Virus record (IMG/VR): IMGVR_UViG_2863283106_000001
Location: 32,001 to 96,000 of that record
Length of the DNA stretch: 64,000 bases
Direction: 5' to 3' (one strand)
From: a virus
Lineage: Duplodnaviria > Caudoviricetes
Below the pieces are notes generated by a model, which had not been told where the DNA came from, made no database searches, and saw only the letters and a list, made by a program, of their open reading frames with translations. How positions within the stretch are numbered: the first letter of the stretch is position 1; the number at the start of each line of letters is the position of its first letter. Shown here one piece after another: positions 34,588 to 62,828 of the stretch. A program made the position numbers and the translations under genes.

Positions 34588-34751
34588 CTGTCCATCCCCC
34601 TCCTCGTTGGCCCGGCAGATGCCGGATCTGATGTGGCGCCAACTTTACCGACAACAATTGGAGTTATTGTCGGCTACCCACGAGTAACCCCGTATCGTGT
34701 CTTCCGAGGGCGGAGAGCACCGCCCGAACCACGAACCGAAGGAGCACCCCC

Positions 34752-35015
34752 GTGCGGAAGCTGCCCGGCAAGTTGAAGCTCGTCGCGTACGCCCTCGTTC
34801 TCCTGGCCCTCGCGCACCCGGGCGCCGTTCCGCCCGTGCTCGGTATCGCGCTCGCCATGGCGGGCGCCGTCATCGGCTGGGCCCTGGCGCACCTGTCGCT
34901 CGCCCTCACGCTTGCCGCCGGCGTTTTGCTGTTCCGGGCCTTCCCCGGCATCCCGCGCTGGTTCAGCCGCTCCTGGGACGCCTCGGTCGACTCCGTGCTC
35001 CCCGTCAAGGCGTAA
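34752..35015 (+). CDS. Small hydrophobic membrane protein (possibly Spd-type)
   Basis: Hairpin leader plus AAGGAG RBS; about 3 TM segments. Confidence 0.65.
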   Translation: MRKLPGKLKLVAYALVLLALAHPGAVPPVLGIALAMAGAVIGWALAHLSLALTLAAGVLLFRAFPGIPRWFSRSWDASVDSVLPVKA

Positions 35016-35150
35016 CAACGGCTCTGTTCGAGCCGTTCGATTCTTCGCCCAGAACGATTCTCCGCTCACCCCCTCATGACCCCACGGACGCCCGTTGTGG
35101 CGCCGACCGGTGGAGAGCAACCGCCGGAAGTCCAAACGAAGGAGCCCTCT

Positions 35151-35531
35151 GTGGCCACCGTTGAAATCGTCAGCTTCGGCTACTTGCACGGTCAGGCCCC
35201 GGAAGCCGATGTGACCCTCGACCTGCGGCGGGCCTTCCGAGACCCGCACGTCGACCCGCGCATGCGAGAGCTGACCGGCTACGACCGACTCGTACGCCGG
35301 AAGGTCCTGAACACCGCTGGAGTCCGTCAGCTCTTGAAGGCCACAACCAGGCAGGTGCAGGCGTACGCGGCGGGTCCGAACGTCGAGCACATCGTCATCG
35401 GTTCGGGATGTGCGGGCGGACGTCACAGGTCGGTGGTTGTTGCCGAGAAGCTGGCCCGTCGGCTCCGGCGCCGCGGTCACACCGTCACCGTCACCCACCG
35501 AGACATCCGCCGGGCAGTCGTCCAGCGCTGA
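35151..35531 (+). CDS. Stand-alone RapZ C-terminal-like domain
   Basis: IVSFGYLHG..DLR..DP..ELTG.D..GCAGGRHRSV..AE.L..HRD. Confidence 0.85.
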   Translation: MATVEIVSFGYLHGQAPEADVTLDLRRAFRDPHVDPRMRELTGYDRLVRRKVLNTAGVRQLLKATTRQVQAYAAGPNVEHIVIGSGCAGGRHRSVVVAEKLARRLRRRGHTVTVTHRDIRRAVVQR

Positions 35532-35585
35532 CCAGCACCCACCGGCGGAGAGCAACCGCCTGCACCCGAAGAGAGGAACACCCCG

Positions 35586-36497
35586 ATGCGACGACGCGTC
35601 GTCACCACCCTGATCCCTCAGCCCGACCCCGAGCCGGCGTACCCCGAGTACGAAGACGTCCGACGCGAGGCCCGCCGCCGCAAAGGGCCGTTCGTCAACC
35701 TGGCCGACACCGACCGCTGGACGGAGGTTGCCCGCCGCCGGGGCGGCGACTGGTGCGCCGCGGTGCTGGGCAAGGGCTTCCCCGGCGCCTACGCCCTATC
35801 CACCGTGGACGGCTGGATGCTGATCGTCGCTGACGAGCGCGGCCTGAACCCGCCGCTGCCGGCCCGCATCGTCGAGGACCGCAGGCACGCGCAGGAGGCG
35901 AAGGAGCTGCGCGAGAAGCAGGTCAGGGAGCGCCAGGAGCGGGAGATGCGCCGCTGGCAGGCGGCCCTGGCCGCGGCCGGCGTCGAGATGACCGTCCGGG
36001 AGAACACCCGGCACACCGGTGTGGGCGGATCGCTGCGGCACGCGGTACCGAAGGAGGAGCTGGTCTCTGGCCAGTCCCGCAAGCACCTCGCCGACCGCGG
36101 CCTGTGCGAGACGCCCGACCGGGCGAACCCGCTGCACCTGGGCGAGCCGGTCAACGCCCCGGCCAACTGCCGCCGCTGCCTCGCCTACATGGAGAAGGTC
36201 CGCACCCTCGACGCCCCCGCCCCGCCCACCGCGGCAGAACGGAAGCTGCTGCAGGTCATCGCCTCCGGCGTCGTCTTCACCATGACGCACGCCCGTTGCG
36301 CCCCGACGATCCGCGTCACCACCGAACCGAGCCGAGGGCGCGCCGGCGCGCTGGGCCGGAGCGTCGATGCCGCGGTGAAGAGGCTGCAGGCGAAGGGCTG
36401 GACGGCCAAGGACGCGGAGCGCAGCGCGACGCAAACGGGTCACTCCGGCCACCGTTGGCGGCTCACCGAAGCCGGTACCGCCGCACTGGAGGGCTGA
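35586..36497 (+). CDS. Hypothetical protein (Zn-binding H..C..CxxC; wHTH-like C-terminus)
   Basis: Hairpin leader plus RBS. Confidence 0.6.
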   Translation: MRRRVVTTLIPQPDPEPAYPEYEDVRREARRRKGPFVNLADTDRWTEVARRRGGDWCAAVLGKGFPGAYALSTVDGWMLIVADERGLNPPLPARIVEDRRHAQEAKELREKQVRERQEREMRRWQAALAAAGVEMTVRENTRHTGVGGSLRHAVPKEELVSGQSRKHLADRGLCETPDRANPLHLGEPVNAPANCRRCLAYMEKVRTLDAPAPPTAAERKLLQVIASGVVFTMTHARCAPTIRVTTEPSRGRAGALGRSVDAAVKRLQAKGWTAKDAERSATQTGHSGHRWRLTEAGTAALEG

Positions 36498-36501
36498 CCC
36501 T

Positions 36502-37131
36502 GTGGTCCGCATGACCGCCCAGCAGTACAAGGAGCTCATGGCGCGCCGCCGCGGTCCCCAGCCCGCGGCGGCCGCCGCCGTGGCGCAGCGGAGACCGGCC
36601 GCGCACCCGGGCCTTCCGTCCGTTCCGGAACCGCCCGCGCTCGAGCCGTTGCTCGCCGGCCTGTCCGGCGTCGGTCGCACCTGGTCACTGCTCATGCCGT
36701 ACGCCGAGAAGATGCTGACCAGCAACCAGCGGCTCCACTGGCGGCGAGAGCACGAGATCCGGAAACAGCTTCGCGCGGACGCCACCAGCCTGATCGCAGC
36801 GCACCGTCTGCCCCGCCTGCAGCGCGCGGCGATCTTCTACGTGCTGCACCCCCGGCCGCTCAAGCGGTCCCGGGACCCGGGGAACTGGTCGCCGACCGCG
36901 AAGGCGTACGTCGACGGACTGGTCACCCCAACCCCCGAACGGCCGTCGGAGCGCCACCTGTTGCCAGATGACGACCACGAGCACCTCCTGGGCCCGAACC
37001 CCGTCATGGGTGCGCCCGTCACCACCGGGTACGCCCGCATGACCCTCGTCATCGTGGAACTCGTCGAGCCGGTGACCAGCGGAAACGCCGAAACCGTAAC
37101 AGGAACCAGTGATCCGACGTACAGAAGCTGA
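36502..37131 (+). CDS. RusA-like Holliday junction resolvase
   Basis: NQRLHW..RDPGNW.PT.KA.VDGL..LPDDD. Confidence 0.65.
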   Translation: MVRMTAQQYKELMARRRGPQPAAAAAVAQRRPAAHPGLPSVPEPPALEPLLAGLSGVGRTWSLLMPYAEKMLTSNQRLHWRREHEIRKQLRADATSLIAAHRLPRLQRAAIFYVLHPRPLKRSRDPGNWSPTAKAYVDGLVTPTPERPSERHLLPDDDHEHLLGPNPVMGAPVTTGYARMTLVIVELVEPVTSGNAETVTGTSDPTYRS

Positions 37132-37172
37132 GGGCTGGCCCGCCCTCGCCACCACCAAGGAGATGCCCCTCC

Positions 37173-37799
37173 ATGAGCACCACTTCCACGCCACCGACTG
37201 TGAGCGGTGAGCCCATACTCGACCTGGTCCGCGGCGCGTATGCACGCAGTGGCACGTTGCTCGACCGCGACGTCGTGGACCTCCACCTCCTCGAGGCCGC
37301 CGACAAGGCGGCGTGTTCCCTGCTGCGGGACCAGTGGACGGACGGTTTCCCCGTCGCCGCATACTCGGAACTCCTGTCGACGATCGCCGCACTGCGGAGC
37401 ATCCTCGGTTACTCCCCGACGCCGACAGCCCGCGACGCCAACACCTGGGCGCGCCGTGTGGGCCACGCGTCCAAGGAAGCGGCGGGCGACGACGCGGACT
37501 TCTACGAAGTGCAGATCATCGATGGCCCACACAAGGGGATCATCCTGCCCCTGTGGGGGCCGAAGATGCCCCAGACGCCCGACGCGTTGGCCGGCCCGCC
37601 CCTCACGCTGGAGCTGCCGATAGAACGCGGGGACAGCACGGACATGGAGTACGGCAGCGCCTACTACCGCCGGTGCACGAAGCCCCGCCCGACCACCATG
37701 CAGTGGGACTACCAGATCGACCGCGAACGCCCGTTCCCCGCCGAGGGGTCCCGCCCGAGCATGCTCCCCGCCGCGGGCGGTCAGGAGGGCCGCGCGTGA
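37173..37799 (+). CDS. Hypothetical protein
   Basis: AAGGAG RBS; first gene of a coupled operon. Confidence 0.6.
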   Translation: MSTTSTPPTVSGEPILDLVRGAYARSGTLLDRDVVDLHLLEAADKAACSLLRDQWTDGFPVAAYSELLSTIAALRSILGYSPTPTARDANTWARRVGHASKEAAGDDADFYEVQIIDGPHKGIILPLWGPKMPQTPDALAGPPLTLELPIERGDSTDMEYGSAYYRRCTKPRPTTMQWDYQIDRERPFPAEGSRPSMLPAAGGQEGRA

Positions 37800-38038
37800 T
37801 GCCTCTCCTGTCCGCCGTCATCCCGTCCCCGGCCGCAGACGCCGCGCACGACGCTGCGCACGAGACCGCAGCCCGGTTCCAGCACGGCGCCTACTCGGTG
37901 CCCTGCCCGGAGTGCCACGTCCCGGCCGGTGTGCTCTGCCTCGCCCGCCGCAACGTCCACGCCGCCCGCCGGAACGCCTACCGGCAGAACCCGAAGCCCA
38001 CCGGCCTGGTGCCGCTCCTCGTGGGACGTGTCCGATGA
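37799..38038 (+). CDS. Small zinc-finger protein
   Basis: CPECHVPAGVLC..H..R; TGATG overlap. Confidence 0.6.
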   Translation: MPLLSAVIPSPAADAAHDAAHETAARFQHGAYSVPCPECHVPAGVLCLARRNVHAARRNAYRQNPKPTGLVPLLVGRVR

Positions 38039-38292
38039 GCGCCACGGCGGCCGAAGCCGCGCATCACGCCGCGGTCTGGGCCGGGCGCGCCGAGAGCGCC
38101 CACAAGGCGGTGCAGACCCGTCGGGAGCAGGCCCACAAGATGGCTGACCAGCGCTACAGCGCTGCCGCCCGCGACTGGCACGAGCGTGCCGACGCGGCGA
38201 AGGAAGAACGCGGCACGGCGGTGACCATGGCGAACATGTGGGCCAGCGTCGCCGGCGTTCTCCACCTGGTCGAGGCTGGTGAGTCGTCGTGA
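38035..38292 (+). CDS. Hypothetical helical protein
   Basis: ATGA/GTGA overlaps. Confidence 0.55.
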   Translation: MSATAAEAAHHAAVWAGRAESAHKAVQTRREQAHKMADQRYSAAARDWHERADAAKEERGTAVTMANMWASVAGVLHLVEAGESS

Positions 38293-38921
38293 GCGCGCTC
38301 GCCGTCGAGACGACGGCCGCGCCCGAGTGGGCTGGCCGCCTGGTCGTGCGCGCCGCGGGTCACTCGCACCTGCACGTCGCCGTGGAGGGCGCCGTGGCCC
38401 CGCGGGTGCCGGTGTTCACCGTGCCGCTGGAGTGCGCGCCGGACGCCGAGCAGGCGCCCGGGGTGCGGCCGTGGGACGGGCCGGTCACCGCGTCGGACAT
38501 TTGCCCGGCCTGCCTGCGCGCCCTGCGCGGGGAGCCGGAGCCCGAGCGGCCGCGCCCCGTTCCCTCCGGCGTCGCCGAGGAGCTGCCGGAGCCGGACCGC
38601 CGCGGACGCCACCTGTGGGCCGTCCCGGAACCGGTGACGTACGCCCCGGCTCCCCTGCCCTCCGAGCACGCCGGCCGGCCGATCACCTGGTCGGCCTGGA
38701 CGAAGTCGCCGGTCCTCTCCCACTACGACCCGTCGTGTGAGTGGTGCGGGGACCCGGGTCCCGGCGAGATGGCCGGCGGCCGCCAGACCAACCCCCTGCG
38801 CCGGTATGTCGCTTACAGGTGCACCGCCTGCCAGGAGATGACCGCGTACGAGCAGGTCGGGAGCGAGCTCCAGACCATCGTTCACCACAAGTCCCGCGCC
38901 CCGAAGGACTGCAACCGATGA
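38289..38921 (+). CDS. Zn-ribbon protein
   Basis: CPAC, CEWC, CTAC; coupled. Confidence 0.6.
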   Translation: MSALAVETTAAPEWAGRLVVRAAGHSHLHVAVEGAVAPRVPVFTVPLECAPDAEQAPGVRPWDGPVTASDICPACLRALRGEPEPERPRPVPSGVAEELPEPDRRGRHLWAVPEPVTYAPAPLPSEHAGRPITWSAWTKSPVLSHYDPSCEWCGDPGPGEMAGGRQTNPLRRYVAYRCTACQEMTAYEQVGSELQTIVHHKSRAPKDCNR

Positions 38922-39181
38922 CCACTGCCGTTGAAGCACCCGACACCGCCGACCTCGAGCAGCTCATCGCCCTGATCGCGTGCGGCCGCACCCGCCCCGG
39001 CAAGACGAAGGCCTGCGACCGCTGCGCGAAGAGGGGTCGCGCCCTGTTGGAGTTCGCCGCGCTGGGCACCATCGACGCCCTCGCCGCAGCGATATGCCGC
39101 TCCGAGGTCCGCCGGTCCTGCGCCCCGTGCGTGGAGAAGGCCCTCGAGATCATCAGCGTCTACAACGAGGGGGCCCAGTGA
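38918..39181 (+). CDS. Cys-rich small protein
   Basis: Internal repeat C..CxxC x2; coupled. Confidence 0.55.
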   Translation: MTTAVEAPDTADLEQLIALIACGRTRPGKTKACDRCAKRGRALLEFAALGTIDALAAAICRSEVRRSCAPCVEKALEIISVYNEGAQ

Positions 39182-39642
39182 CCACCGCAATCGCTCCGAT
39201 CGCTCCGCCGCGTGCAGCGGTCGCTTTCGACCTCGAGGGCGGCCTTGCCAACGTGACGCGCATCCACCGTCTGGCCGGCGACTCCTCCAGGTTCTACCGG
39301 GCGATCCTCAAGTGCCCCGCGAACCGGGACGTCGTGCGGGCCGCCAAGGAGGCGCACCAGAGCGGGAAGACCGTCATCATCATGACCGGCGGGGACCAGC
39401 GCAACGCGCCCCTCGTGGCCCAGTGGCTGGCCCGCCACAGGGTGCCCTCGACCCTGGTCCTGATGCGCGGCCGCGGCGACTACCGGCCCAGCGCCGTGGT
39501 GAAGCGGGAGCGGCTGCGGGCCGCGCACCGCCAGTTCCCCAACCTCACCGTGTGGAGCGCTGACCCGAGCGTGGCCCGCCTGTCCGAGCAGGAGGGCATC
39601 ACCGTCACGGAGCTGCCCGGGTACTGGGGGGATGCCCTGTGA
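39178..39642 (+). CDS. HAD-fold protein resembling the T4 PNK (PseT) 3'-phosphatase domain, with a degenerate motif I
   Basis: VAFDLEGGLA (canonical DxDGT), IIMTG, LMRGRGDYRP..VK. Confidence 0.6.
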   Translation: MTTAIAPIAPPRAAVAFDLEGGLANVTRIHRLAGDSSRFYRAILKCPANRDVVRAAKEAHQSGKTVIIMTGGDQRNAPLVAQWLARHRVPSTLVLMRGRGDYRPSAVVKRERLRAAHRQFPNLTVWSADPSVARLSEQEGITVTELPGYWGDAL

Positions 39643-39812
39643 CCGGCGAAGTTGGCCACGCCTCCGTGTTCATCGCCCCCGTCGGGACTCCGCCCGACGC
39701 GGCCGGCGCCTGGACGCACATCGGTTACACCGAGGGACCCGCATTCGAGGCCGCCGACGAGGCGGAAACTGCCGGGCCTCCCCCGGCACAGGCCATCGAG
39801 GGACCGCGGTGA
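39639..39812 (+). CDS. 57-aa ORF resembling the N-terminus of actinophage major tail proteins
   Basis: Not in the ORF track; MTGEVGHASVFIAPVGTPPDAAGAWTHIGYTEG...; GTGA overlaps at both ends. Confidence 0.5.
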   Translation: MTGEVGHASVFIAPVGTPPDAAGAWTHIGYTEGPAFEAADEAETAGPPPAQAIEGPR

Positions 39813-40186
39813 ACAAGCCCGGCAACCACGAGCTCGCCCCCGAGGAGTTGCCCACGCTCCTCGGGGGCGAGTTGCCTCCCGTCCTGCCTCTCGAAGGATG
39901 GCGACCGGTGACGCTGCACTGCCAGGTCGACGCGATCGGCCCGTCCGACCGACACCCCGACCTGGTCAAGCTCGAGGTCTCGTTCCCGCCCGTGCAGGCC
40001 CCGCCCGTGCAGGCCCCGCCTGTCATGCGGGCGCCGCTCATCGGGCAGCCCATCCAGGAGATCCGGCTTGTCTGCGGAACGTGCGGTCTGGTGCCCGTGG
40101 AGGAGCATCCCCGCATCCTTGACGTCCTGCGGTGCGTGAACTGCAAGGAGCACCTGGGCGTCGGCCGGTTCGAGGGATCGACGTGA
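39809..40186 (+). CDS. Zn-ribbon hypothetical protein
   Basis: CGTC...CVNC; coupled. Confidence 0.55.
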   Translation: MNKPGNHELAPEELPTLLGGELPPVLPLEGWRPVTLHCQVDAIGPSDRHPDLVKLEVSFPPVQAPPVQAPPVMRAPLIGQPIQEIRLVCGTCGLVPVEEHPRILDVLRCVNCKEHLGVGRFEGST

Positions 40187-40464
40187 AAGGCATCTATCAC
40201 CTGGCCGAGTCCTCCCGGCTCTACGGCGGCCTCGCGCAGTGGATGGAGGCTGAGCAGCGGCGCGCGGCTGAGGCGGCCCGGTGCTGGGCGTGGCGGTGCG
40301 TGCAGGCGCGGCAGATCGTCGCGCCGACGCCCATCCCCTCGCAGTTGGCTCGGGAGTGGTTCGGGGTGGAGCCGGCGGACCCGCCCCAGCCGCCCCCCGT
40401 TCCGGAGAGCGTGCGGCTGCTGCTGAGCGTCGCCGCCCCCCTACTCGATTCTCGGTGGGATTGA
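40183..40464 (+). CDS. Hypothetical protein
   Basis: GTGA overlap. Confidence 0.45.
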   Translation: MKGIYHLAESSRLYGGLAQWMEAEQRRAAEAARCWAWRCVQARQIVAPTPIPSQLAREWFGVEPADPPQPPPVPESVRLLLSVAAPLLDSRWD

Positions 40465-40543
40465 TGAATTTCGGCGAAATCTTCCAATCTCGTCGAAAGA
40501 TCGTGCACAATGAGGGCTGTTGCTGATCTAGAGGGGGGAACCG

Positions 40544-40798
40544 GTGGCCGACACCGAATCGCCGCGCGTCCTACGGCTCACGTTCGAGTTCCATGTGCCG
40601 GTCGGGCTGCCCACCAACATTCATGGCTCGCGTGTGACCAAGGCCGCAGAGGCGTTCACCAGCGCGGTGCAGGCCCTCGCCAGCCAGGTCTTCCCCTGGG
40701 CGGACCGCATCGAGGTCCGACGCGAGTGGTGCTACGCCTGGCAGGACAAGTCCGAAACGGTCCACTTGCCAGCCACGGACAAGAACACCCCGAAGTAG
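40544..40798 (+). CDS. Hypothetical protein
   Basis: Purine-rich RBS and an AT-rich upstream region. Confidence 0.5.
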   Translation: MADTESPRVLRLTFEFHVPVGLPTNIHGSRVTKAAEAFTSAVQALASQVFPWADRIEVRREWCYAWQDKSETVHLPATDKNTPK

Positions 40799-40962
40799 CC
40801 ACAGAACTCAGCACCACAGCGCGATAACCGAACACTGGCGTCATGGCCAACCCCCGGCGGAGAGCAACCGTCGGAACCACGAAGTGAAGGAACACCCCGA
40901 TGCCCTCGCGTACCGCAGCCCTTGTCCGTCCGTCCGCGTCTCTTCTGTCGAGGTGACGTGAC

Positions 40963-43002
40963 GTGTCCACACCTCGAGTTACGCCGGATCACGTCACCTC
41001 GGCTACGGAAGCCGCTTACGAGGCCTTCACCGTTACCAGGCCCTCCCGCAGCTCCCGCATGCTGCGCATCGCGTGCACCGTCGTGCAGCGCCGCGCCCCC
41101 TACTTCGCCCCTCCCGTCGTCGCCGGAACGTGGGGGAGCTGGATCTACGCCTCCGCGTGGATTGGTGACCCGGGGCTGGAATGGCCGATCGCCTACGGCA
41201 CGGCGGGCGCTGTGCTGGGCGCGGCCACGGTCGGGGCCACTGTCCTGGGTATCCGGCACCCGATCGCGCTGCCCGCCCTGTACGGCGGCGCCGTGGCGTC
41301 GGGCACGCTGCTGTGGTCGGCGTGGCAGACCGCGTTCCCGTCTGCACCTGGCGCGGCCGTCGGCCTGGTGGGTGCCATCGCGGCCGGTGTCCCGTACTGG
41401 CTATGGCTGGCCAAGCACCGCCTGAACCGCGCCAAGATCGACAGCAAGACCGTGAAGCAGGCTGCGGCCGTGCCTGTCGAAGTGGTCCTGGCGCCCGACG
41501 ACGTCGCCGGCGCGCTGGCCGCCACGGGGACGCCCGGCGCGACCCTCGAGCAGATGCTCCGCCACCCTGATGGCGCGTGGACCGCCATCCTCTCTCTGCC
41601 GGTCGGTGTCTCCCCCCGGGACATCGCCGGCAGTGCGCAGCGTGTCGCGCGTCTGCAGGCCGCTTTGCGTCTGGCGCCCGGCTGGACGCTCGAGGTCGGG
41701 GACGGCGGTGCCTCGCACCACCTGATCGTCACCGCCCGGCCGCCCGCCCCGCAGAACACGGTCACCATTCCCTCCCGGCACCCCATCCTCGACGAGCTGG
41801 AGGAGTGGGACCCCTGGCAGCCGGTCCTCGTTGCGATCGACCTGGACACCGGCGAGGGCGTCCACCTGCACCTGCTGGCCCGCGCCGGCATCCTCATCGC
41901 CGGTCTGCAGCGCATGGGTAAGTCCGTGCTGCTGTCGGTGGTCGTGGCGCACCTGGCGCTCGCCGGGGCGCGGCTGATCCTCGCGGACGCCAAGCTGGTT
42001 GAGCTGTCCCTGTGGGCGCCGCTGTGCCAGCACGAAGACGACTTCATCGGCCGCGACCCCGCCGCGTTCCTGGCGAAGCTGCTGGAGCTGCAGCGGGAAA
42101 TCGACGTCCGCTACGCCCGCCTGGTGCGGGAGGGCCGCACGAAGGCGGAGCCGGGCGACGGGTGGACCACGATCGCGCTCATCGTCGACGAGCTGGCGGC
42201 GTTCATCGACATCCCGGACCGCAAGCTCCGTGGGCAGATCGTGTCCGTGCTGCGGGACATCCTCTCCCGTGGCCCGGCCTGCCTCGTCCCAGTCGTCCTT
42301 GCCACGCAGAAGCCGGAGGACAAGGTCGTCCCCTCTCAGATCCGCGACGTCTGCGGGCAGAAGGTCGCGCTGGCGACGACCACGCCGGAGATGACGGACA
42401 CCATCCTCGGGCGTGGTTGGGCCGCCAAGGGCGCGGCCGCGCACCTGATCGGCGAGTCGGAGAAGGGCAAGGCGTACCTCCTCGAGGACGGCTCCCGGCC
42501 GCGGAAGGTGCAGACGTTCCCGTTCGAGCCGCCGGAGCGCCACGAGGTCATCACCGTTGTCCGTGAGCTGTGGCCCGACCGCCCCGGTGCCCGGGTGCCG
42601 CTGCCCGGCGCCGAGGACCAGGATCCGGACCCTGTGCCGCCGACTCCCCCGCCGGGCGGCGGTGGCGGTGGTGGTCCGCGTGGCGGCCGGCCGCACCTGC
42701 GGCCGGTGCTGACGTACCCGGACGGTTCCCGCATCGAGGAGAACCGAAAGCCGTTGTGGGAGGCGCTGCAGCAGGCCGGCCCGGAAGGGCTGACCAAGCC
42801 GGAGGCGGTCAAGCGCGGCATCTGTAACCACCACACGACCATCAACCCGTGGCTGGCCCAGTGGGTCCGCGCGGGCTGGGTCGAGGAGTCCGGTAAGCGC
42901 GACCGGGCTGTCGTCTACGTCCTCACCGCAGCTCAGCACACCCCCACCCCCGAAGCGTCCGCCACCAGCGAGGAGAGCACCGCATGCCGCACGAGCCTGT
43001 GA
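40963..43002 (+). CDS. traB: TraB-like FtsK/SpoIIIE conjugative DNA translocase
   Basis: N-terminal TMs; Walker A GLQRMGKS, DAK.VEL, Walker B LIVDELA, ATQKP; Pro/Gly linker and C-terminal winged helix. Confidence 0.85.
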   Translation: MSTPRVTPDHVTSATEAAYEAFTVTRPSRSSRMLRIACTVVQRRAPYFAPPVVAGTWGSWIYASAWIGDPGLEWPIAYGTAGAVLGAATVGATVLGIRHPIALPALYGGAVASGTLLWSAWQTAFPSAPGAAVGLVGAIAAGVPYWLWLAKHRLNRAKIDSKTVKQAAAVPVEVVLAPDDVAGALAATGTPGATLEQMLRHPDGAWTAILSLPVGVSPRDIAGSAQRVARLQAALRLAPGWTLEVGDGGASHHLIVTARPPAPQNTVTIPSRHPILDELEEWDPWQPVLVAIDLDTGEGVHLHLLARAGILIAGLQRMGKSVLLSVVVAHLALAGARLILADAKLVELSLWAPLCQHEDDFIGRDPAAFLAKLLELQREIDVRYARLVREGRTKAEPGDGWTTIALIVDELAAFIDIPDRKLRGQIVSVLRDILSRGPACLVPVVLATQKPEDKVVPSQIRDVCGQKVALATTTPEMTDTILGRGWAAKGAAAHLIGESEKGKAYLLEDGSRPRKVQTFPFEPPERHEVITVVRELWPDRPGARVPLPGAEDQDPDPVPPTPPPGGGGGGGPRGGRPHLRPVLTYPDGSRIEENRKPLWEALQQAGPEGLTKPEAVKRGICNHHTTINPWLAQWVRAGWVEESGKRDRAVVYVLTAAQHTPTPEASATSEESTACRTSL

Positions 43003-43866: not shown

Positions 43867-43886
43867 TGGAGGCCCTGAACGGTTGA

Positions 43887-49321: not shown

Positions 49322-49430
49322 AACGGCTGTTCTCCATCTCGCTGTGGCGCGGTTGTGCGCCGTAGCGGCGACTGGGGCAACCCCATGCCGCCGCATCAGC
49401 GGGAATGGTACACCCGAGTAAATCCCGGTG

Positions 49431-52878: not shown

Positions 52879-52884
52879 CACGGG

Positions 52885-54302: not shown

Positions 54303-54422
54303 GGGCGCGGACCGTAGGGTCCCCGAGCGCTTGCGTCGCGCGCCTTGCGCCGGGGCCTGGGGGTACGGCTGCGCCCCGGCCGGGGAGTCGTCCGGCCGGG
54401 GCGCAGGAGCGGGCGGAGGGAG

Positions 54423-54791: not shown

Positions 54792-54862
54792 AGGGGGTCC
54801 TTCCGTACGGGGTACTGGAAGGGCGGACCGTGCCCGGCCCGGACGGCTTACGTCGCGTCGTG

Positions 54863-55210: not shown

Positions 55211-55367
55211 TGCGTGGCCTTCCAGGCGGAGGGATGAGGCCACGCAGGCTCGAGGGGCGGACGGTCTTACGTCGCGCGCTGCCGCTCAGGATCGCTCAGG
55301 GCGGGCGACGGGCGACCGGGGCAGGGGGAATGGGCCCCGCCGGGCGTAGGCGGGGCCACAGGGCCGC

Positions 55368-55805: not shown

Positions 55806-55815
55806 GCTTTCGAGC

Positions 55816-57030
55816 CTAGTTCGAGCCGGCGGCCGCGCCCTGCTCCACGCGGGGTGAGGTTCGACGCTCGCCAGTCCGCCCGGCGTGCTCGGCGTCCTGG
55901 TCCACACGCACCGCGAGCCGCGGGCCGTCCTCCGACCGCTCGGCGTCCTCGAGGACCTCCGCCCACCAGGCGTAGCGATCGGGCCGGATCGGGTGCTCCG
56001 TCGCCTGGTAGAACGCCACGGCGCCGTTGATCCGGACGGGCCGCAGCAGCCCGAGCACATCCCCCAGCGCGGCAACGGCCCGCTCGGCGCGATGCCGGGC
56101 GACGTCTTCGCCGGCTTCGGCTTCACCGCAGCGGGCCGCGTACCGGTCGCGCTCGCGCTTCGCGTCGGCCCACTGCCGGTTGCGGAGGCGGAGCTGGGCC
56201 CACAGGTTCTGTACCTGTGTCGGGTCCCCTCCCAGGGCGCGCACCGCGGTTCGCAGGGTGCGCAGCTCCCCCTCAGCGAGCTTCGCCCGGAGCTGCCACC
56301 CGTCGCGCTGCCGGGTGAGCTGGGCGCAGTCCACCAGGATGCCGACGCTCGGCGCGCCTGCGCCACGGATGACGCGGAGCGCTTCGGCGGCGTGGTCGCG
56401 GCCGCACATCGCGCAGTCCTCCCGCTCGCTCGGGTCGGTCGCCTCGCGGTGCTCCTCGGCTTCCTGCAGCACCTGGCACACGCGGGCGGTGACCGTCTGG
56501 AACTCGACGAGGGCGGACCCGTGCTCGCACTCCGGGCCGGTCGCGCGTTCCTGGCGTTCGGCGGCCGCGCGGGTCGCCCACTGGTGCGCCTCTCGGGCGT
56601 GGTCGATCAGCGTGGGCCACGGGGTGTCAGGGTGGACGTCCAGGGCTTCGGCCAGGGCCCGGCGGCGCATGGTGTCGGCCCCCTCCTCCTGGAGGGCCTT
56701 CTGCTGCCACGTGGTGGCGGCGCCCACGGCGATACGGACCGCGTCGGTGCTGCCCTTGGGGGCGGGCCTGGCGTTGGCGCGCTGTTCGGCCTCGCGTATG
56801 GCGGCGTCCGCGGCCTCACGGTGCCGGGCAAGGCGCCGGTTCGTCTTGGCCAAGCTCTTGCCGGTCTTCACCCCCAGACGGACCTCCTCGCGGACGTGGG
56901 CGGCCAGGACGGCGGCCTGCTCCGGGGTGAGGGTCCCGGCCTCGAGGCGGGGCAGCAGGTCGTCGAACGCGGCGCGCCGTGCCTCGCGTTCGTGGCGCTG
57001 CGGTGTGGTGCGGGAGTGGCGGCGGGGCAT
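55816..57030 (-). CDS. Coiled-coil hypothetical protein
   Basis: GAGGAG RBS; TGTAAC-N17-CGTT promoter. Confidence 0.6.
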   Translation of the reverse strand: MPRRHSRTTPQRHEREARRAAFDDLLPRLEAGTLTPEQAAVLAAHVREEVRLGVKTGKSLAKTNRRLARHREAADAAIREAEQRANARPAPKGSTDAVRIAVGAATTWQQKALQEEGADTMRRRALAEALDVHPDTPWPTLIDHAREAHQWATRAAAERQERATGPECEHGSALVEFQTVTARVCQVLQEAEEHREATDPSEREDCAMCGRDHAAEALRVIRGAGAPSVGILVDCAQLTRQRDGWQLRAKLAEGELRTLRTAVRALGGDPTQVQNLWAQLRLRNRQWADAKRERDRYAARCGEAEAGEDVARHRAERAVAALGDVLGLLRPVRINGAVAFYQATEHPIRPDRYAWWAEVLEDAERSEDGPRLAVRVDQDAEHAGRTGERRTSPRVEQGAAAGSN

Positions 57031-57183
57031 GTGCTCGGCTCCTCGTGCACGGGCGGCGGGGCCCGGCGGGAAGTCCGGGCACGGCAAGGAACGGGCGCGG
57101 CGGCCGATCTGTTACAGCGGCCGCGGGAACGACGGAGCGCCCGGCCTCCGCGGGGTGCGGGGCCGGGCGCTCCAGGGGGCCGG

Positions 57184-58506
57184 TCAGGCGGCCGGGGTGT
57201 AGTCGTCGGTGCTGTGGACCAGTTCATTCATGCGGTAGAGCTGGCAGAGGTAGTCAGTGGCCAGCGTCTCTCCGTCGACGTTGAAGAACTGGGCGAGCAG
57301 CCGCGCTGCCATGAGCGGGGGGACGACGTCGGCGAGCTGCTGGAACACGCTCGTGCGGGAGCCTTGCGAGGGGTAGGAGGCGCGGAAGCCGACGAGGAGT
57401 GCGGCTTCGTTCTGGGTGAGGCGCAGGCCGTCAGAGACTCGCTTCCAGGTGCGGGCCTTGCCGGTGAGGCAGTTGGAGGGGCGATCGGCGGAGAACTCGT
57501 TGCCGCCCTTGGGGCGGCCGGTCTTCGGGTCGATGCCGCGCACGCCACGGGTGTTGATCTTCTCGCCCTCCTTCCAGCCAAGGGCCTGCGCCATCGTGGT
57601 CTGGGGGACGTTCTCGGTGGGCGTGGGCAGGTACGACAGGCGGCGGGAGGCGAGGAAGAACACCCGCTCGCGGCGAGAGGCGAGCCCGAACTGGGAGGCT
57701 TCGAGGATGCCGTGGGTGGTCCAGTACCACTCTCCCTCTTCCTGGCCGCCGCGCAGCTCTAGGCGGATGTCGTCGAGGATCTGCTGCGGCAGTCGGCTGG
57801 ACTGCTCCATTGCGATGAACTCCAGCGGCGCGCCCGCTGCCTGCATGCCGAACGCCCAGAACAGGAGTTCCGCCATGAGGCCGATGCGGGGGTCGGTGAG
57901 CGGGGCGAGTTGGGCGCGCAGTTCGTCCCAGGTGACGCCGGAGCGCGGGGCGTAGCCGTCGTGGTAGCCGAGTTCGTCGCAGGTGTCGCAGCCTTCGCAC
58001 CAGTCATCCAGCTCGTTACCGGGAAGGAATCCGCCCGCCTCGGAGGTCTGGGCGAGCACGCGGCACAGGGTGTTGATGTTGGCCTGGTCCTGCCCGGAGT
58101 GCTTCCCGGCAGGGGAGAAGGAGGGGCACGGCGGGGAGACGATCAGGCCGCGGACGTGGCGCAGGGCGTAGTGCTCGGGGTCCAGGGTGGTGATGTCGGC
58201 GCAGATGCGGAAGTGCCCGGCGGCGCGGGCGGTGGCGCACGCGTCCTTGGAGATGTCGATGCCGACGGCGTCCACGGCGACGCCGAGAACCTTCGCGATG
58301 CCCTCGGACCAGCCCCCCGGGCCGGCGAACAGCTCCACCACGCGGATCGGGTCGCCGGGCAGCGGGTCGAGCAGCCAGCGGCCGGGGAAGGGGTCGGCGG
58401 CCGCGTCCAGGACGGCGAGGACCTTCGGGGGGATGGGCAGACCGGCCTTGCGGGCGAGGGTGGCGACGTGGACGGCGGTTGCGACCGCGGGGGGCAGGGT
58501 CCGCAT
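57184..58506 (-). CDS. Orphan DNA (cytosine-5) methyltransferase
   Basis: ELFAGPGG, SPPCPSFS, MEQ (ENV variant), RRERVFF, QQLADVV. Confidence 0.88.
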   Translation of the reverse strand: MRTLPPAVATAVHVATLARKAGLPIPPKVLAVLDAAADPFPGRWLLDPLPGDPIRVVELFAGPGGWSEGIAKVLGVAVDAVGIDISKDACATARAAGHFRICADITTLDPEHYALRHVRGLIVSPPCPSFSPAGKHSGQDQANINTLCRVLAQTSEAGGFLPGNELDDWCEGCDTCDELGYHDGYAPRSGVTWDELRAQLAPLTDPRIGLMAELLFWAFGMQAAGAPLEFIAMEQSSRLPQQILDDIRLELRGGQEEGEWYWTTHGILEASQFGLASRRERVFFLASRRLSYLPTPTENVPQTTMAQALGWKEGEKINTRGVRGIDPKTGRPKGGNEFSADRPSNCLTGKARTWKRVSDGLRLTQNEAALLVGFRASYPSQGSRTSVFQQLADVVPPLMAARLLAQFFNVDGETLATDYLCQLYRMNELVHSTDDYTPAA

Positions 58507-58575
58507 CTGGTGTTCCTCTCTTCGTGGTCCGCGCCGGTGGTGCTCTCCACCGACACCACGAATAGTACACCCAGG
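58507..58575 (-). promoter_or_regulatory. TACTAT -10 promoter with AGAGCA-loop leader hairpin (repeated at 62652-62716)
   Basis: GGGTGTACTATTCGTGGTGTYGGTGGAGAGCACC is shared by both loci. Confidence 0.7.
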
Positions 58576-58657
58576 TAAATCTCCTGTCCCTGGAACAGCG
58601 GAAACGCGCACTCCGATCGCCTAGGGTGCGCGTTTCTGCTGGTGGTTCGGCTGACAG

Positions 58658-59047
58658 TCAGCCGATCGCCGCGGCGTGCGCCTGACCCTCGAGGACCGCG
58701 GCCGCGGCCTCGACGTCGGCCCGCAGGTCCACCCCGCGGCGCTTGAGGTCCTCGAGCAGCTCCCCCGGCTCCGGGTCATCGCCCTGGTCCGCGGCGGCGA
58801 CATGCTCGGCGAGCGCGGCCCGCAGGGTGAGCACCTCGGACTCGGCGGCCAGCAGCCGGCGCAGCAGCGACGGCAACGCGACACGGCAGTACCGGCCGAA
58901 CGCCTCGGTGGTGTGGCCGCCGCGGAGGGTCTCCGCGTGGACTTCCGCAGCGTCAACGGCTCCAGCGAGCGACGACAGGGGGGCAGTGCCGGGGCGCAGC
59001 AGCGCGTCCAGTTCGGCGAGTAGCTCGGGCGTGGCAGGGGTCAGCAC
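58658..59047 (-). CDS. Hypothetical protein
   Basis: GGAG RBS. Confidence 0.55.
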   Translation of the reverse strand: MLTPATPELLAELDALLRPGTAPLSSLAGAVDAAEVHAETLRGGHTTEAFGRYCRVALPSLLRRLLAAESEVLTLRAALAEHVAAADQGDDPEPGELLEDLKRRGVDLRADVEAAAAVLEGQAHAAAIG

Positions 59048-59114
59048 AGGAGGCTCCAGAGACGGGCAGGAAGGGCGCCCGGGGCCGATACGGGCCCCGG
59101 GCGCAGGGATGGGG

Positions 59115-59267
59115 TCAGACCACTTCGTTGCCGACGGTGGGCGGCTCGGCGTGGTCCTCCGGCTCGCAGTGCGTGCCATGCTCGGGGCAGCCGGCCGGCC
59201 GCTCGAAGCACGGGATCCGGCAGCTTCCGCAGGGGCAGGAACCGACGGTGCGCGGGACAGGGGCCAT
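59115..59267 (-). CDS. 50-aa Cys/His-rich peptide
   Basis: Not in the ORF track; AGGAAGGA RBS; MAPVPRTVGSCPCGSCRIPCFERPAGCPEHGTHC... Confidence 0.5.
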   Translation of the reverse strand: MAPVPRTVGSCPCGSCRIPCFERPAGCPEHGTHCEPEDHAEPPTVGNEVV

Positions 59268-59295
59268 GGGTGTCCGGGTCCTTCCTGGGCGACGG

Positions 59296-60150
59296 TCAGC
59301 GGGCGAGCTGCGGGGCGAGGGAGACCAGGAGGTCCACGCCGACCCCGTGGACGTCGGCGGAGGCCGGGCTGGTGTCCCTCACCCGGGCGTACGGGTCAAG
59401 CGGCGGCGCGACGTACCCGTACGGGCCGCTGCCGGATCCGAACGCGACCCCGCCCTGCTCCGTCTGCTCGACGTCGACGCGCTGCGCCAGGAACGCGGCC
59501 ACGCGGCGCTGCAGCCGGCCCCGCACGGCCTTCATCGGCCACGTCTTCGGGTCGGTCGGACGGGCGGGCAGGAAGTGCGCGACGGCCCGTTCCACGGCGC
59601 GCACGGGCCCCTCGATCTGCACATCGGCGACGGGGTTGGAGCCGTTCAGGGTGGCCGAGTAGCGGCAGCCGCTCGAGGACCAGGTGACGGTGGACGTGTT
59701 CCGCAGCAGTCCCCCACGCTCATAGGTGGCGGCACCCTGGGCGCGCATCGCGGCGCCGATCTCGTACAGCAGCGCCAGACGCGCGCGGGCCGGGTCGTCG
59801 TCCTCGTGGGCGCGGGCGGCGGCCTCGTCGTCGATGACGGGCAGCACCAGGCGCAGCACCTCGCGGGCGACCTTCGCGGGGGCGAGGGCGTGCAGCGTGA
59901 AGTCCGGCCGGTACGGCTCACGGCCGGGGAGCTGCCATCCGACCTCGGTTTCCCACGGGCGGGTCACCAGGATCACGGCGCGCTCCCCCTGCACGATGCG
60001 GGCGGCGGGGTGCCGGGCGGTCCACCACGGGGCGTAGGGCTCCACGGTCCAGGGCACGCCGGCGCGGGCGGGCAGCAGCGCGGCGACGTGCTCGGCGAGC
60101 GTCACGGCGGGGGAGTCGGGGCGGGCCGGGGCGGCGGTGGGCGGGGTCAT
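59296..60150 (-). CDS. Hypothetical protein, paralogue of 60222-61049
   Basis: Shared AALLPAR.G..W, VLP..EAAAR, GPV and G.DLL motifs. Confidence 0.65.
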   Translation of the reverse strand: MTPPTAAPARPDSPAVTLAEHVAALLPARAGVPWTVEPYAPWWTARHPAARIVQGERAVILVTRPWETEVGWQLPGREPYRPDFTLHALAPAKVAREVLRLVLPVIDDEAAARAHEDDDPARARLALLYEIGAAMRAQGAATYERGGLLRNTSTVTWSSSGCRYSATLNGSNPVADVQIEGPVRAVERAVAHFLPARPTDPKTWPMKAVRGRLQRRVAAFLAQRVDVEQTEQGGVAFGSGSGPYGYVAPPLDPYARVRDTSPASADVHGVGVDLLVSLAPQLAR

Positions 60151-60221
60151 GGCGTGCGGCCTTTCGAGCAAGGGCCGCACCCCCGGGCAGGGGCAGGAGG
60201 TGCGGCCGGGCGGGCGAGGGG

Positions 60222-61049
60222 TCAGACCAGGAGCGCGGCGACGGACAGCAGCAGGTCGGTGCCGATGGCGGAGAACTCGGCGACGACTCGGGTGGTGTCG
60301 TCCGCGGTCGCGTCCGGCGTGGGCTTTTCCGGGCGGGCGATGTACCCGGGGACGTCCCCGAGGCGGCCGAACTCGAGCTCGTCGACTCCCAGGGGCCGAA
60401 GCTGCGGGAACCGGGCCGTCAGATGCCGCGTGAGCGTGCCTTCGGCGTCCTGGGGGGCGTGCCCGTCGGCGGGGGGCAGCAGGACCGGCAGAACGGCGTA
60501 CAGGCCGTGCACGGGCCCGTCGTAGGTGAGGGTGAGCTGACCGGCCAGGCCGTACACGGACAGGCCCCACTTCCCGCCGGCGGTGCCCTCCCACTCCAGG
60601 GCGGGCCCGGTCAGCGTGTCCTCGACGGCCGGGTGCGCGCCGTGGTCGATCAGCTCGAACCCGACTTCCGACAGGTCCGCGGCCTTCGCGGTGACGACTC
60701 CCTGCCACCCGTTCTCGTGGTGGACGCGGGCCGCGGCCTCCCTCTCCAGGCGGGGCAGCACGGTACGCAGGATCCGTCCGGCGAGCGTGGCGACGGGGTG
60801 CGGGGCGTCCTGGGCGACGACGACGTCCGGGGTCACGGGGAACATGTCGGCGTCGTCGACGAACACCTCGATGCGGCCGCCGCTTTCGGCGATGATCAGC
60901 GCGCGGTGCCCGTTGGTGAGCCGGGACGTCGCGGCGTGGGGCCGGACGCAGTACGGGGCGGGGGTGACCTTCCACGCTTCACCGCGGCGGGCGGGCAGGA
61001 GAGCGGCGAGCGGCGCCGCGGTGGCGGCGTGGGCGATGGCAGTGATCAC
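60222..61049 (-). CDS. Hypothetical protein, paralogue of 59296-60150
   Basis: Same shared motifs; hairpin leader. Confidence 0.65.
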   Translation of the reverse strand: MITAIAHAATAAPLAALLPARRGEAWKVTPAPYCVRPHAATSRLTNGHRALIIAESGGRIEVFVDDADMFPVTPDVVVAQDAPHPVATLAGRILRTVLPRLEREAAARVHHENGWQGVVTAKAADLSEVGFELIDHGAHPAVEDTLTGPALEWEGTAGGKWGLSVYGLAGQLTLTYDGPVHGLYAVLPVLLPPADGHAPQDAEGTLTRHLTARFPQLRPLGVDELEFGRLGDVPGYIARPEKPTPDATADDTTRVVAEFSAIGTDLLLSVAALLV

Positions 61050-61206
61050 AGGGGGCGGTCCTTCGGTTCGTGGTCGGTCCGGCGCGGTGCTCTCCGGCCG
61101 GGCAAGGTGGCCATGCGGGTAGTGCTTGCGTCACGCCCCGGGGCGGCTCGAGGTCGTCCAGGCCCCGGGGCGCGACAGCCGAAAGCCGGCTCTCTCACCG
61201 GGTAGT

Positions 61207-61246
61207 ACGCCGAACAGGCGCGCCTTGTGACGCGCCTGTTCGGCGT
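61207..61246 (-). terminator. Stem-loop terminator
   Basis: ACGCCGAACAGGCGCG-N8-CGCGCCTGTTCGGCGT. Confidence 0.7.
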
Positions 61247-61252
61247 GGGGCC

Positions 61253-62134
61253 CTACCGGCGGCAGTCGAACAGCGCGGTGCAGCCGTCGGGGCAGGAGTG
61301 GACGTGTGTGGCGGCGAGGAGCAAGCGCACGTTGCTGGCGCCCTGGGCGCGGCGGGGGGTGCCGTTGTTGCCCTGGACCACCTCGGCGCGCAGCACCTTG
61401 CCGGAGCGCTTGCCGATCTGGATGGTGCCGAACGTGCCGTGCTTGCCGCCCGCGTTGAGGTGGATACGGCGCACACCGCGGTAGGTGCCCCCGTCGGTGA
61501 GGCGGAACCCCTCCTTCTCGGCGAGCTGGAGGGTGCTGACGGTGTATGGGGTGAGGCCGGTGAGGTCGAGCGGCGCCGGAGCGGCCGGGGCCGGGGCGAC
61601 GCGGGCGGGGGCGGCGGGGGCGGCGGGGGCGGTCATGATGCGGTCGTAGGCGTCGTGCAGGTTCAGCGCGGTCTGCAGGCAGGCGGTCACGGCCTCCGTG
61701 CCGCGCGCGGCGTGCAGGGCGTCGTGCGCCTCGGCGAGCTGGGCGAGCACGGCCGCGGCGCGGGTCCGTCGGCCCACCCCGGCGGCGGTGAACGCCTTCA
61801 CGGGCGGGGTCGGCATGGCGCGGCGGCTGAACGGCTCGAGCACGTACGCGGTGAAGTCGGCGGGCAAGCCCGTGCCCGGGGTCTCCTCCACCAGCCAACG
61901 GGCCTCCACTAGGGGCATGCTTGCCTCGAACGGCAGCACGTTGGTGAGGGTGATGCCGTCGACGACGTCCGGCTCCTCAGCCTCGAACGCGGTGGCGGAG
62001 GCGTCCAGGAAGCCGGCGATCTGCAGCAGGACCGCGGCGACGTCGGGGCGCTCGGTGGCGCGGGTGCGGACGACGTCGGCGATGGCGCGGGTACGGACGG
62101 CGCGCACGAGGTTGGGGTTGGTGGTCACGGCCAT
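61253..62134 (-). CDS. Hypothetical protein
   Basis: GGAG RBS; GC3-biased frame. Confidence 0.6.
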   Translation of the reverse strand: MAVTTNPNLVRAVRTRAIADVVRTRATERPDVAAVLLQIAGFLDASATAFEAEEPDVVDGITLTNVLPFEASMPLVEARWLVEETPGTGLPADFTAYVLEPFSRRAMPTPPVKAFTAAGVGRRTRAAAVLAQLAEAHDALHAARGTEAVTACLQTALNLHDAYDRIMTAPAAPAAPARVAPAPAAPAPLDLTGLTPYTVSTLQLAEKEGFRLTDGGTYRGVRRIHLNAGGKHGTFGTIQIGKRSGKVLRAEVVQGNNGTPRRAQGASNVRLLLAATHVHSCPDGCTALFDCRR

Positions 62135-62204
62135 GGTGGGTGTCTCCGATCGGCGGGGAGGGGGCCGCGCCCCGGGGTCGGGGCGCGGCGGGGGTTGCGT
62201 CCGG

Positions 62205-62651
62205 TCAGGCGGCGGCGCGGGCGGGGGCCGGGCGGCCGAGGGCGAGCGCGGCGAGGAACGCGGCCACCTCGTCGTTCTTCGGCCGGTACCCGGTCAGGGC
62301 GACGGCGCGGATGTCCTCGCGGGTCCACAGGGCGGCGGGGACGACGCGGTGCCGCTTCTTGCGGGCGAGGTCGCCGGTGCGGGCGACGGTCAGGCCCTTC
62401 TTGCCCTTGCGCTTCTTCGTGGTGGTGCCCGCGCCCGGGATGCGGTCGGCGGCCTTCGCCTTCTTCGTGATGGTGGCCGCGTAGTTGTGGGCGACCAGCG
62501 GGGTGACGCCACCGGCGATGAGGTGGGCGGAGGTGGCCGCGGGGCCGGCGTTCACGGCCTTCACGGCGGCGCGGATCTCGCGGGCGGTACGGGCGCGGTC
62601 GCGGAGTGCGGCGCGGCGGGGGTCGACCTTGTGGGTACGGGCAGAAGCCAT
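62205..62651 (-). CDS. Highly basic small protein (possible nucleic-acid binder)
   Basis: Lys/Arg-rich; hairpin leader and TACTAT promoter. Confidence 0.65.
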   Translation of the reverse strand: MASARTHKVDPRRAALRDRARTAREIRAAVKAVNAGPAATSAHLIAGGVTPLVAHNYAATITKKAKAADRIPGAGTTTKKRKGKKGLTVARTGDLARKKRHRVVPAALWTREDIRAVALTGYRPKNDEVAAFLAALALGRPAPARAAA

Positions 62652-62828
62652 GGGGTGCTCCTCGGTTCGTGGTCGTTGGCGGTGCTCTCCACCAACACCA
62701 CGAATAGTACACCCTCACGAATCTAGGGGGAAGCGGAACGGCAGAACCGGCCAGCGTTTCCGCAGATGGACACGCGCCCGACTCCGTCCGGGAGGGGCGG
62801 GTGCGTTCCCTTGGGGTCGCCGTTCCGG

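Follow-up and report, generated by a model that had tools for sequence, protein, structure and literature searches.

Cluster K mycobacteriophages carry start-associated sequences (SAS) and extended start-associated sequences (ESAS) (PMC3203893). According to that paper, SAS are short asymmetric repeats present in 11-19 copies per genome, nearly all in one orientation and directly upstream of translation starts; they have an AGGAG core, precede non-structural genes only, are all but missing from the host and have been proposed to act in translation initiation. The 13-nt SAS consensus, GGGATAGGAGCCC, is placed there 3-7 nt before the start codon. ESAS are described as 17-bp inverted repeats with conserved arm sequences, for which the authors judged RNA pairing unsupported and DNA-binding sites likelier. 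SAS and ESAS are the closest described phenomenon to the repeated leader motif that we analysed in a 64,000-nt stretch of Streptomyces phage-plasmid DNA, hereafter the window (bases 32001-96000 of the 112,518-bp IMG/VR 'provirus' record IMGVR_UViG_2863283106_000001; G+C ~71%; positions below are those of the window). The motif is very probably a new structured leader RNA of the sense strand, tied to the translation starts of non-virion genes in a family of phage-plasmids. A search of the literature on start-associated sequences, on Streptomyces phage-plasmids and TraB plasmids, and on GGAGAGCA returned no description of it by title or abstract among the papers listed, with supplements and most subscription journals outside the scope of the search.

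The sequence GGAGAGCA occurs ten times in the window against 2.78 occurrences expected, a count reached in none of 100 shuffles. Seven of these sites lie in hairpins (34712, 35112, 35547 and 40859 on the plus strand; 58541, 61088 and 62683 on the minus strand), and the other three are two plain ribosome-binding sites (2479- and 42972+) and a site inside a coding stretch (18443+). The seven are the leader hairpins that an earlier note, made from the sequence alone, had pointed out. A covariance model built from 41 copies (R1) recovered every one of them at E-values of 5e-18 to 2.4e-7, and the stems quoted in that note were correct, the loop being constant while the stems vary and still pair. 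Each window copy has a G+C-rich stem of 5-10 bp and an AGAGCA or AGAGCAA apex closed by a G-C pair. Five of the seven hairpins are followed by the box ACCACGAA, as had been reported, and the remaining two carry AAGTCCAAACGAA and CACCCGAA; downstream of the box come an AGGA-type Shine-Dalgarno sequence (SD) and the start codon. The overall order of parts is a hairpin of 5-11 bp with the apex (A/C)GAGC(A)N, 1-6 nt, the box ACC(A)CGAA, the AGGA SD, a CACCC spacer and the start, with ACC(A)CGAA-N2-5-AGGA(A/G)CACCC-start as the consensus 3' part. An upstream TTCGTGGT able to pair with the box was likewise found at two of the seven copies. This arm is missing from the orthologous leaders of relatives, so the pairing of TTCGTGGT with ACCACGAA is not general; it is peculiar to the window's element and lies outside the conserved structure.

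Seven copies is the right count for the window and an undercount for the full 112.5-kb record, in which R1 detected 14 strong copies at E <= 2.4e-7 (seven in the window and seven outside) and two weak matches. Four related elements of ~125 kb contain 16-18 R1 copies each. All 14 strong copies are co-oriented with the downstream gene, and the distance from GGAGAGC to the start codon was 38-46 nt in all 12 copies measured across the record. On the related plasmid NZ_CP107934.1, 14 of the 16 R1 matches end 10-14 nt within a coding sequence called by PGAP; for the remaining two, the annotated start follows 49 and 61 nt further downstream, and one of them precedes TraB.

We examined the structure by covariation. 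In the alignment of R1 matches (71 matches, 66 distinct rows), 97.5% of the cells formed standard pairs compared to 63.1% in column shuffles (none of 500 equalled it), and 131 cells carried double changes compared to 44.4 in shuffles, with compensatory changes in six of the seven pairs. Sliding the 3' partner by 1-3 columns reduced pairing to 27-54%. Since this alignment was fitted to R1, and the R1 seed copies had been selected for pairing, two less circular tests were added. The first was a pattern of loop, box and AGGA that did not require pairing, applied to a species-representative genome collection with 120 loci fetched. Among the pattern matches listed, 27 of 40 from Streptomyces records and 2 of 87 from other taxa had a stem of 5 bp or more without interruption, and such a stem together with a start codon was present in 24 of 40 and 0 of 87, respectively; the remaining Streptomyces matches listed mostly had bulged stems. 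The second was an independent distant lineage (G130, G140, G065 and singles) that had no part in the R1 seed. Its 37 matches showed 92.6% pairing compared to 63.6%, and 65 double-change cells compared to 20 in shuffles; the apex was retained, the box read GACCCGAA and the SD was weaker. G-U pairs outnumbered A-C pairs (25 to 4 and 16 to 9), and the fold was therefore assigned to the sense strand. Although the stems varied freely, 92 of 103 distinct copies had the apex AGAGCA or AGAGCAA, and the other apices were CGAGCAT (4), AGAGCG (3), AGAGCAG (2), AGAGCTA (1) and AAAGCA (1). Centroid single-sequence folds kept the hairpin in all seven window leaders and left the box and SD unpaired in five of them. 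Rfam 15 gave no gathering-score match over the whole window, just two unrelated matches located elsewhere when 34000-64000 was searched at E <= 5, and nothing relevant on the aspS leaders described below. The earlier note had suggested a covariance model and a comparison with Rfam as checks on a candidate new cis-regulatory RNA, and the proposal holds: the motif covaries strongly, lacks an Rfam match, belongs to the sense strand and sits just upstream of the ribosome-binding site.

Some copies depart from the common layout. The copy before TraB is separated from it by a short upstream open reading frame (uORF); NZ_CP107934.1 shows the same gap, of 49 nt, and the distant lineage has a 12-aa uORF there (L166:12128, L167:6878). 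The uORF may be a leader peptide or serve translational coupling. At L002:3667-3845, a promoter-like box and an AGAGCAA hairpin lie ~110 nt away from a box-like stretch, SD and start of a 210-aa gene, and this gap indicates that the hairpin and the box with its SD can be uncoupled. In the G001 lineage (L150-L156), a one-base box insertion (ACCAACGAA or ACCAGCGAA) was found in 10 of 16 copies, before unrelated genes; either gene conversion or co-evolution with a reader would explain this concerted change. A small conserved GC hairpin, GGGCG-CAC-CGCCC, occurs within GGGCGCAGGGCGCACCGCCC just upstream of some operon-internal copies (L004 ~270-295 (-), L011:460-488 and L016:7920-7949), and could resemble a terminator or provide a second site for protein binding.

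The element that carries the motif is a large Streptomyces phage-like plasmid in which capsid, portal, terminase, integrase and TraB are all encoded. Matches to PHROGs comprised an HK97-type major head protein, a Nudix-fused head protease, the portal, the large terminase and the integrase; the functions named by PHROGs were confined to head, packaging and integrase. In the window, Pfam gave a weak FtsK_SpoIIIE match for TraB as well as a C5 methyltransferase and a RapZ-C domain (Table 1). Relatives of the element were found as a circular plasmid (NZ_CP107934.1, a 125,380-bp plasmid of S. zaomyceticus, where PGAP names the TraB gene FtsK/SpoIIIE), as ~125-kb contigs in many Streptomyces assemblies and as a chromosomal integration (G017, 3.97-4.07 Mb); three further related elements are IMG/VR records of 126, 128 and 126 kb. 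The element belongs to a widespread family of ~125-kb Streptomyces phage-plasmids.

Genes behind motif copies are non-virion genes. The methyltransferase, RapZ-C, traB and basic-protein genes named in the earlier note are indeed preceded by copies, as are genes for 87-aa, 303-aa and 275-aa proteins. The description of these as establishment and transfer genes is roughly right, the non-virion set comprising the methyltransferase, TraB and many members of no assigned function. None of the capsid, protease, portal and terminase genes identified through PHROGs has a motif copy. A different sequence, CGCGACRYWA, precedes the capsid, giant-protein, terminase and other virion-side genes, with 11 window occurrences where 1.23 would be expected, and appears to mark a second expression class that is without the hairpin leader. 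Several motif copies are accompanied by a promoter-like box, GGGTGTACTATTC, with a -10-like TACTAT. At up to two mismatches it has three window matches against 0.25 expected, and eight in the whole record. Six of the 14 strong copies directly adjoin this box or a close variant; the others are operon-internal or lie behind different -10-like sequences. A sigma-70 consensus scan of 56000-64000 returned no promoters, and if the TACTAT box is a promoter, as we infer, it is one with no canonical -35.

The adjoining promoter-like boxes could be taken to mean that the motif works in DNA, whether as an operator bound by protein or as a site that forms a cruciform or single strands, or that it is a duplicated promoter remnant with no RNA role, and G-T wobble would be tolerated in single-stranded DNA as well. 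However, operators keep the sequence of their arms, whereas in the motif the arms vary and pairing alone is kept; orientation and spacing track the start codon, copies that have no promoter box retain the hairpin, and Streptomyces TraB is known to transfer double-stranded DNA. A DNA-level feature is accordingly the least probable of the explanations we considered and can hardly be credited. The motif was also rejected as an intrinsic terminator: ACC(A)CGAA rather than a T-run follows the hairpins, and none of the four terminator-like sites in 56000-64000 falls at a copy.

Antitermination was among the functions put forward in the earlier note. A hairpin followed by a linear box is reminiscent of the boxB and boxA of nut sites, a small arginine-rich protein that might act like N is encoded early, and the boxB of lambda, to which an arginine-rich peptide binds, is a pentaloop with a GNRA-like fold, which the GAGCA in the 7-nt apex of the motif could resemble. 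But the elements carry 14-18 copies each, three of them ~400 bp apart in a single operon before successive genes, each copy holds a fixed distance to its start codon, and the linear box lies 3' rather than 5' of the hairpin; a lambda-type nut site was rejected on this layout. Solitary copies also occur before aspS where the element is absent (see below), and no T-run terminator-like hairpin was found at the copies in 56000-64000. Because of the close spacing within one operon and the fixed start distance, processive antitermination is very unlikely.

Copies located between cistrons of one operon (34700, 35100 and 35535) are what would be expected of a processing or decay signal, at which a host or element endoribonuclease would cut the single-stranded box or the GGAG apex, splitting the cistrons apart or silencing the early genes; T4 RegB, for example, cuts GGAG in early mRNAs. 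The stable hairpin with an unpaired A-rich stretch behind it and the intercistronic position of the host der copy (see below) are also in keeping with such a signal. On the other hand, RNase III is known to require stems longer than these 5-11 bp, the analysis yielded no candidate nuclease, and around half of the copies immediately follow a promoter-like box and have no cistron to separate. We regard processing as improbable. The processing, nut-like and DNA-level explanations all fit less well than those considered below.

We then considered what might read the motif. The RapZ-C protein, which the earlier note had offered as one candidate, is excluded as a common reader, since a search with the window's protein found it in none of the four related elements, with their 16-18 motif copies each; its matches in the S. 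glaucus genome were on other contigs only. An antisense RNA was likewise rejected: sequences complementary to the box (TTCGTGGT; in G001, TTCGTTGG) are present nearly only opposite motif copies or in coding sequence, with no conserved non-coding anti-box locus in G000, G001 or G002. One Streptomyces 16S sequence had no perfect complement to box or apex, its best site forming 9 of 10 pairs with one mismatch. CsrA was dismissed for the element: PF02599 had no match in the 112.5-kb record, three of 14 control genomes were matched, and host genomes lay outside this search. Pfam searches with ten conserved unknown proteins and ten tagged or basic proteins returned no RNA-binding domain.

The basic protein stands out as a candidate reader, by composition and conservation only. 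Its family comprises proteins of 125-148 aa with an arginine-rich N-terminal helix, one subtype having a Lys-rich disordered loop. A member was present in all ten elements examined, always behind the best-scoring, promoter-proximal copy. The 25 database homologues are all Streptomyces 'hypothetical proteins' on contigs of ~124-131 kb or on chromosomes. In an AlphaFold model (predicted local distance difference test score, pLDDT, 74.3), residues 11-35 form a long Arg-rich helix. The protein matched no Pfam family; none of the 22 PDB folds listed reached E <= 0.001, and the ESM Atlas gave no neighbour with a name at a threshold of 0.9.

These properties would suit the main rival to the explanation that we favour, namely that the motif serves as operator for a regulator that binds RNA and is encoded by the element, most plausibly the basic protein, which would switch the non-virion regulon jointly by translational repression or activation, in the manner of T4 RegA or the MS2 coat protein. 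A fixed apex and box on a variable stem are the mark of sequence-specific recognition, the motif is restricted to the element with the exception of aspS, and the basic protein combines constant presence, its place behind the best copy, a Streptomyces-only distribution and the predicted helix. The box insertion in G001 could also mean co-evolution with a reader, although gene conversion among copies would yield the same change. However, neither Pfam, PDB folds nor the ESM Atlas point to RNA binding by the basic protein, many other genes are equally core, so that co-occurrence is unspecific, and solitary aspS copies whose pairing is maintained in five element-free genomes are hard to explain by an element-encoded regulator. 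We consider such a regulator possible, if rather unlikely.

The host copies were found in surveys of Streptomyces. R1 was run on 151 Streptomyces genomes at E <= 1e-4, with 35 candidates per genome scored, and 13 genomes had a match. In genomes with several, the matches were grouped in a single region or contig; G004, for instance, had 16 of its 17 on contig C18 (125.6 kb). A full copy of the motif, with the AGAGCA apex, the box ACCACGAA and the SD, was detected by pattern scan and R1 in records of at least seven Streptomyces species, ahead of aspS, which encodes an aspartyl-tRNA synthetase of 587 aa. Whole-genome searches of five of them gave one R1 match each, in the aspS leader (39.7-54.6 bits), and the element terminase was found in none of the five at E <= 1e-10, compared to all five positive control carriers. 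The aspS stems vary by compensatory changes (GAGG/CCTC, AGGG/CCCT, GGGG/CTCC) around a constant AGAGCA. Among 30 aspS leaders sampled genus-wide, 28 were untagged, with CCGCGAAGAC, one base away from the box, at the aligned position. The combination of box, SD and ATG in host chromosomes also exceeded the reversed control (three control matches in total, 41 genomes). The recurrent case was the leader of der (engA GTPase), where GAUCACCACGA(A) begins 2-3 nt past a hairpin and leads into an SD; a box of the form CACCACGA or ACCACGAA with an SD after the hairpin was found in 21 of 30 Streptomyces genomes. The der hairpin lies past the stop codon of the preceding gene and in single-sequence folds has an outer stem GUGGA/UCCAC and a variable inner stem, and the der SD is predicted to pair with ACUUC right before the AUG.

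Table 1. Positions of motif copies, the genes behind them and associated sequence elements (window coordinates unless a locus or genome handle is given).
Feature	Position	Strand	Details
Motif copy	34700..34762	+	stem GGGCGG/CCGCCC, loop AGAGCA, box ACCACGAA, AGGAG; R1 58.7 bits, E 9e-15
87-aa open reading frame behind 34700 copy	34752-35015	+	GTG start 34752
Motif copy, degenerate box AAGTCCAAACGAA	35100..35162	+	stem CCGGTGG/CCGCCGG, loop AGAGCAA; R1 32.6 bits, E 2.4e-7
RapZ-C-domain protein, 126 aa	start 35151	+	PF22740, 5.4e-30
Motif copy, short box CACCCGAA	35535..35596	+	5-bp stem, loop AGAGCAA; R1 36.5 bits, E 1.8e-8
303-aa protein behind 35535 copy	start 35586	+	
Motif copy	40847..40910	+	stem CCGGCGG/CCGTCGG with one G-U, loop AGAGCAA, box ACCACGAA; R1 57.7 bits
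18-aa uORF	40900-40956	+	ATG 40900
TraB	40963-43002	+	follows the uORF; GTG 40963
Promoter-proximal motif copy	58495..58560	-	stem GTCGGTGG/CCACCGGC, loop AGAGCA, box ACCACGAA; R1 63.9 bits
C5 DNA methyltransferase, 440 aa	start 58506	-	PF00145, 3e-20
Motif copy, bulged stem	61038..61107	-	stem CCGGCCGG/CCGCGCCGG, loop AGAGCA, box ACCACGAA; R1 45.4 bits; fold retains bulged hairpin
275-aa protein behind 61038 copy	start 61049	-	GTG start
Best-scoring promoter-proximal motif copy	62640..62702	-	stem TGTTGGTGG/CCGCCAACG, loop AGAGCA, box ACCACGAA; R1 70.1 bits, E 5e-18
Arg-rich basic protein, 148 aa	62205-62651	-	start 62651
Seven strong copies outside the window	L004 200-, 1251-, 1485+, 4153+, 5349+, 9902+; L002 8638+		found with R1
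Promoter-like box GGGTGTACTATTC (-10-like TACTAT)	58560..58572	-	adjoins methyltransferase-leader hairpin
Promoter-like box GGGTGTACTATTC	62702..62714	-	adjoins basic-protein-leader hairpin
Promoter-like box GGGTGTACTATTC	49403-49415	-	no AGAGCA hairpin behind
CGCGACRYWA sites	2578, 23148, 26651, 47362, 50906, 51580, 54331, 54848, 55267	-	
CGCGACRYWA sites	36425, 51599	+	
aspS leader copies	L174:1445-1508 = G043:C2:74765-74828; also L060, L068, L099, L113, L031, L131		
der leader	L206 = G028:C1:1561043-1561110	-	
der leaders	L209-L238		

The solitary aspS copies and the der leader point to a module that is read by the host or is self-sufficient, rather than to an element-specific switch. We therefore tentatively favour a portable cassette for translation initiation and mRNA stability, whose reader need not be encoded by the element, because strains free of the element have solitary and evidently maintained copies before an essential gene of the host. 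From the structure, strandedness, position, copy number, gene class and distribution observed, we infer the following steps. The hairpin would fold first, with only the ability to pair being under selection in the stem. As a 5'-terminal or intercistronic cap, it would insulate the initiation region from the GC-rich RNA around it and slow decay that depends on the 5' end. The G-poor box, the SD and the spacer would then stay single-stranded as a landing site for the ribosome, and the fixed apex and box would be contacts for a trans-acting factor, more probably a host component than an element-encoded one. The outcome would be a uniform cassette by which the element's non-virion genes are set apart as a leadered class, CGCGACRYWA being used by the virion genes instead.

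A further reading takes the host copies as the origin. The hairpin, ACC(A)CGAA and SD would together be a Streptomyces leader signal read by the host, a hitherto unrecognised translational enhancer or regulator site native to housekeeping genes related to translation, which the phage-plasmid copied and multiplied before its non-virion set, thereby capturing a host factor. We think this unlikely, and likewise that the der leader, in most species, and aspS with its full AGAGCA apex, in one clade, are native examples of such a signal.

Several observations weigh against the cassette and its reading by the host. The folding energies are ordinary (z -2.84 to +0.66), and the support for the structure is covariation, not stability. 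Conservation of the apex would be superfluous in a pure insulator or stabiliser and thus calls for a specific reader, which was not found among the candidates examined. Of the 151 sampled Streptomyces genomes, with 35 candidates scored in each, 138 had no R1 match at E <= 1e-4, and one might expect wider occurrence of a signal in general use by the host. The aspS copies could be derived from the element and merely tolerated, and the likeness of the der box, which spans just 7-8 nt, could be due to chance.

The motif is a well-supported structured RNA outside Rfam that defines one of the two expression classes of this phage-plasmid family. To the earlier note the analysis adds the exclusion of RapZ-C, a test of the structure on an independent lineage, the naming of the basic protein as a candidate reader, and the aspS copies together with the similar hairpin and box of der. 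Should the cassette need no factor from the element, and the aspS copies suggest that it does not, it would be a ready portable initiation part for high-GC actinomycetes and also a handle on a host RNA-binding activity. If an element factor is needed, the motif would reveal a new phage post-transcriptional regulon, which would bear directly on the role of actinobacteriophage start-associated sequences.

Three well-known types of leader element share parts of this layout. In the lambda nut site, boxA lies 5' of boxB, there is one site per early operon, downstream of the promoter and unconnected to a ribosome-binding site, and N reads boxA and boxB together. The motif resembles it in having a small hairpin with a specific apex, a linear box and a small Arg-rich protein encoded nearby, and differs in that the order is reversed, many copies occur per operon, each is tied to a ribosome-binding site, and a copy is also found at a host gene without the element. 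CsrA/RsmA leaders have a GGA in a hairpin apex and another at the SD; similarly, the motif has a GGA at the stem-loop junction and an AGGA at the SD ~20 nt downstream. Unlike in those leaders, the stem takes up the GG of GGAGAGCA in base pairs, and the element has no PF02599 match. The 5'-terminal stabilising stem-loops, such as that of the ompA leader, combine a stable hairpin near the 5' end with an unpaired ribosome-binding region. The motif follows the same plan of a hairpin and then an unpaired ribosome-binding region, but its apex is conserved, which stabilisers do not need, and about half of its copies are operon-internal.

The comparison with SAS and ESAS sets Mycobacterium against Streptomyces and phages against a 112-128-kb phage-plasmid with TraB. 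The consensus of the motif is unrelated to GGGATAGGAGCCC, the AGGA core alone being held in common, and, unlike in ESAS, the arms vary with 97.5% pairing and compensatory changes in six of seven pairs while the apex is conserved. Like SAS, the motif is present in many copies (14), in one orientation at translation starts and before non-structural genes, and is without a match in most Streptomyces genomes (138 of 151).

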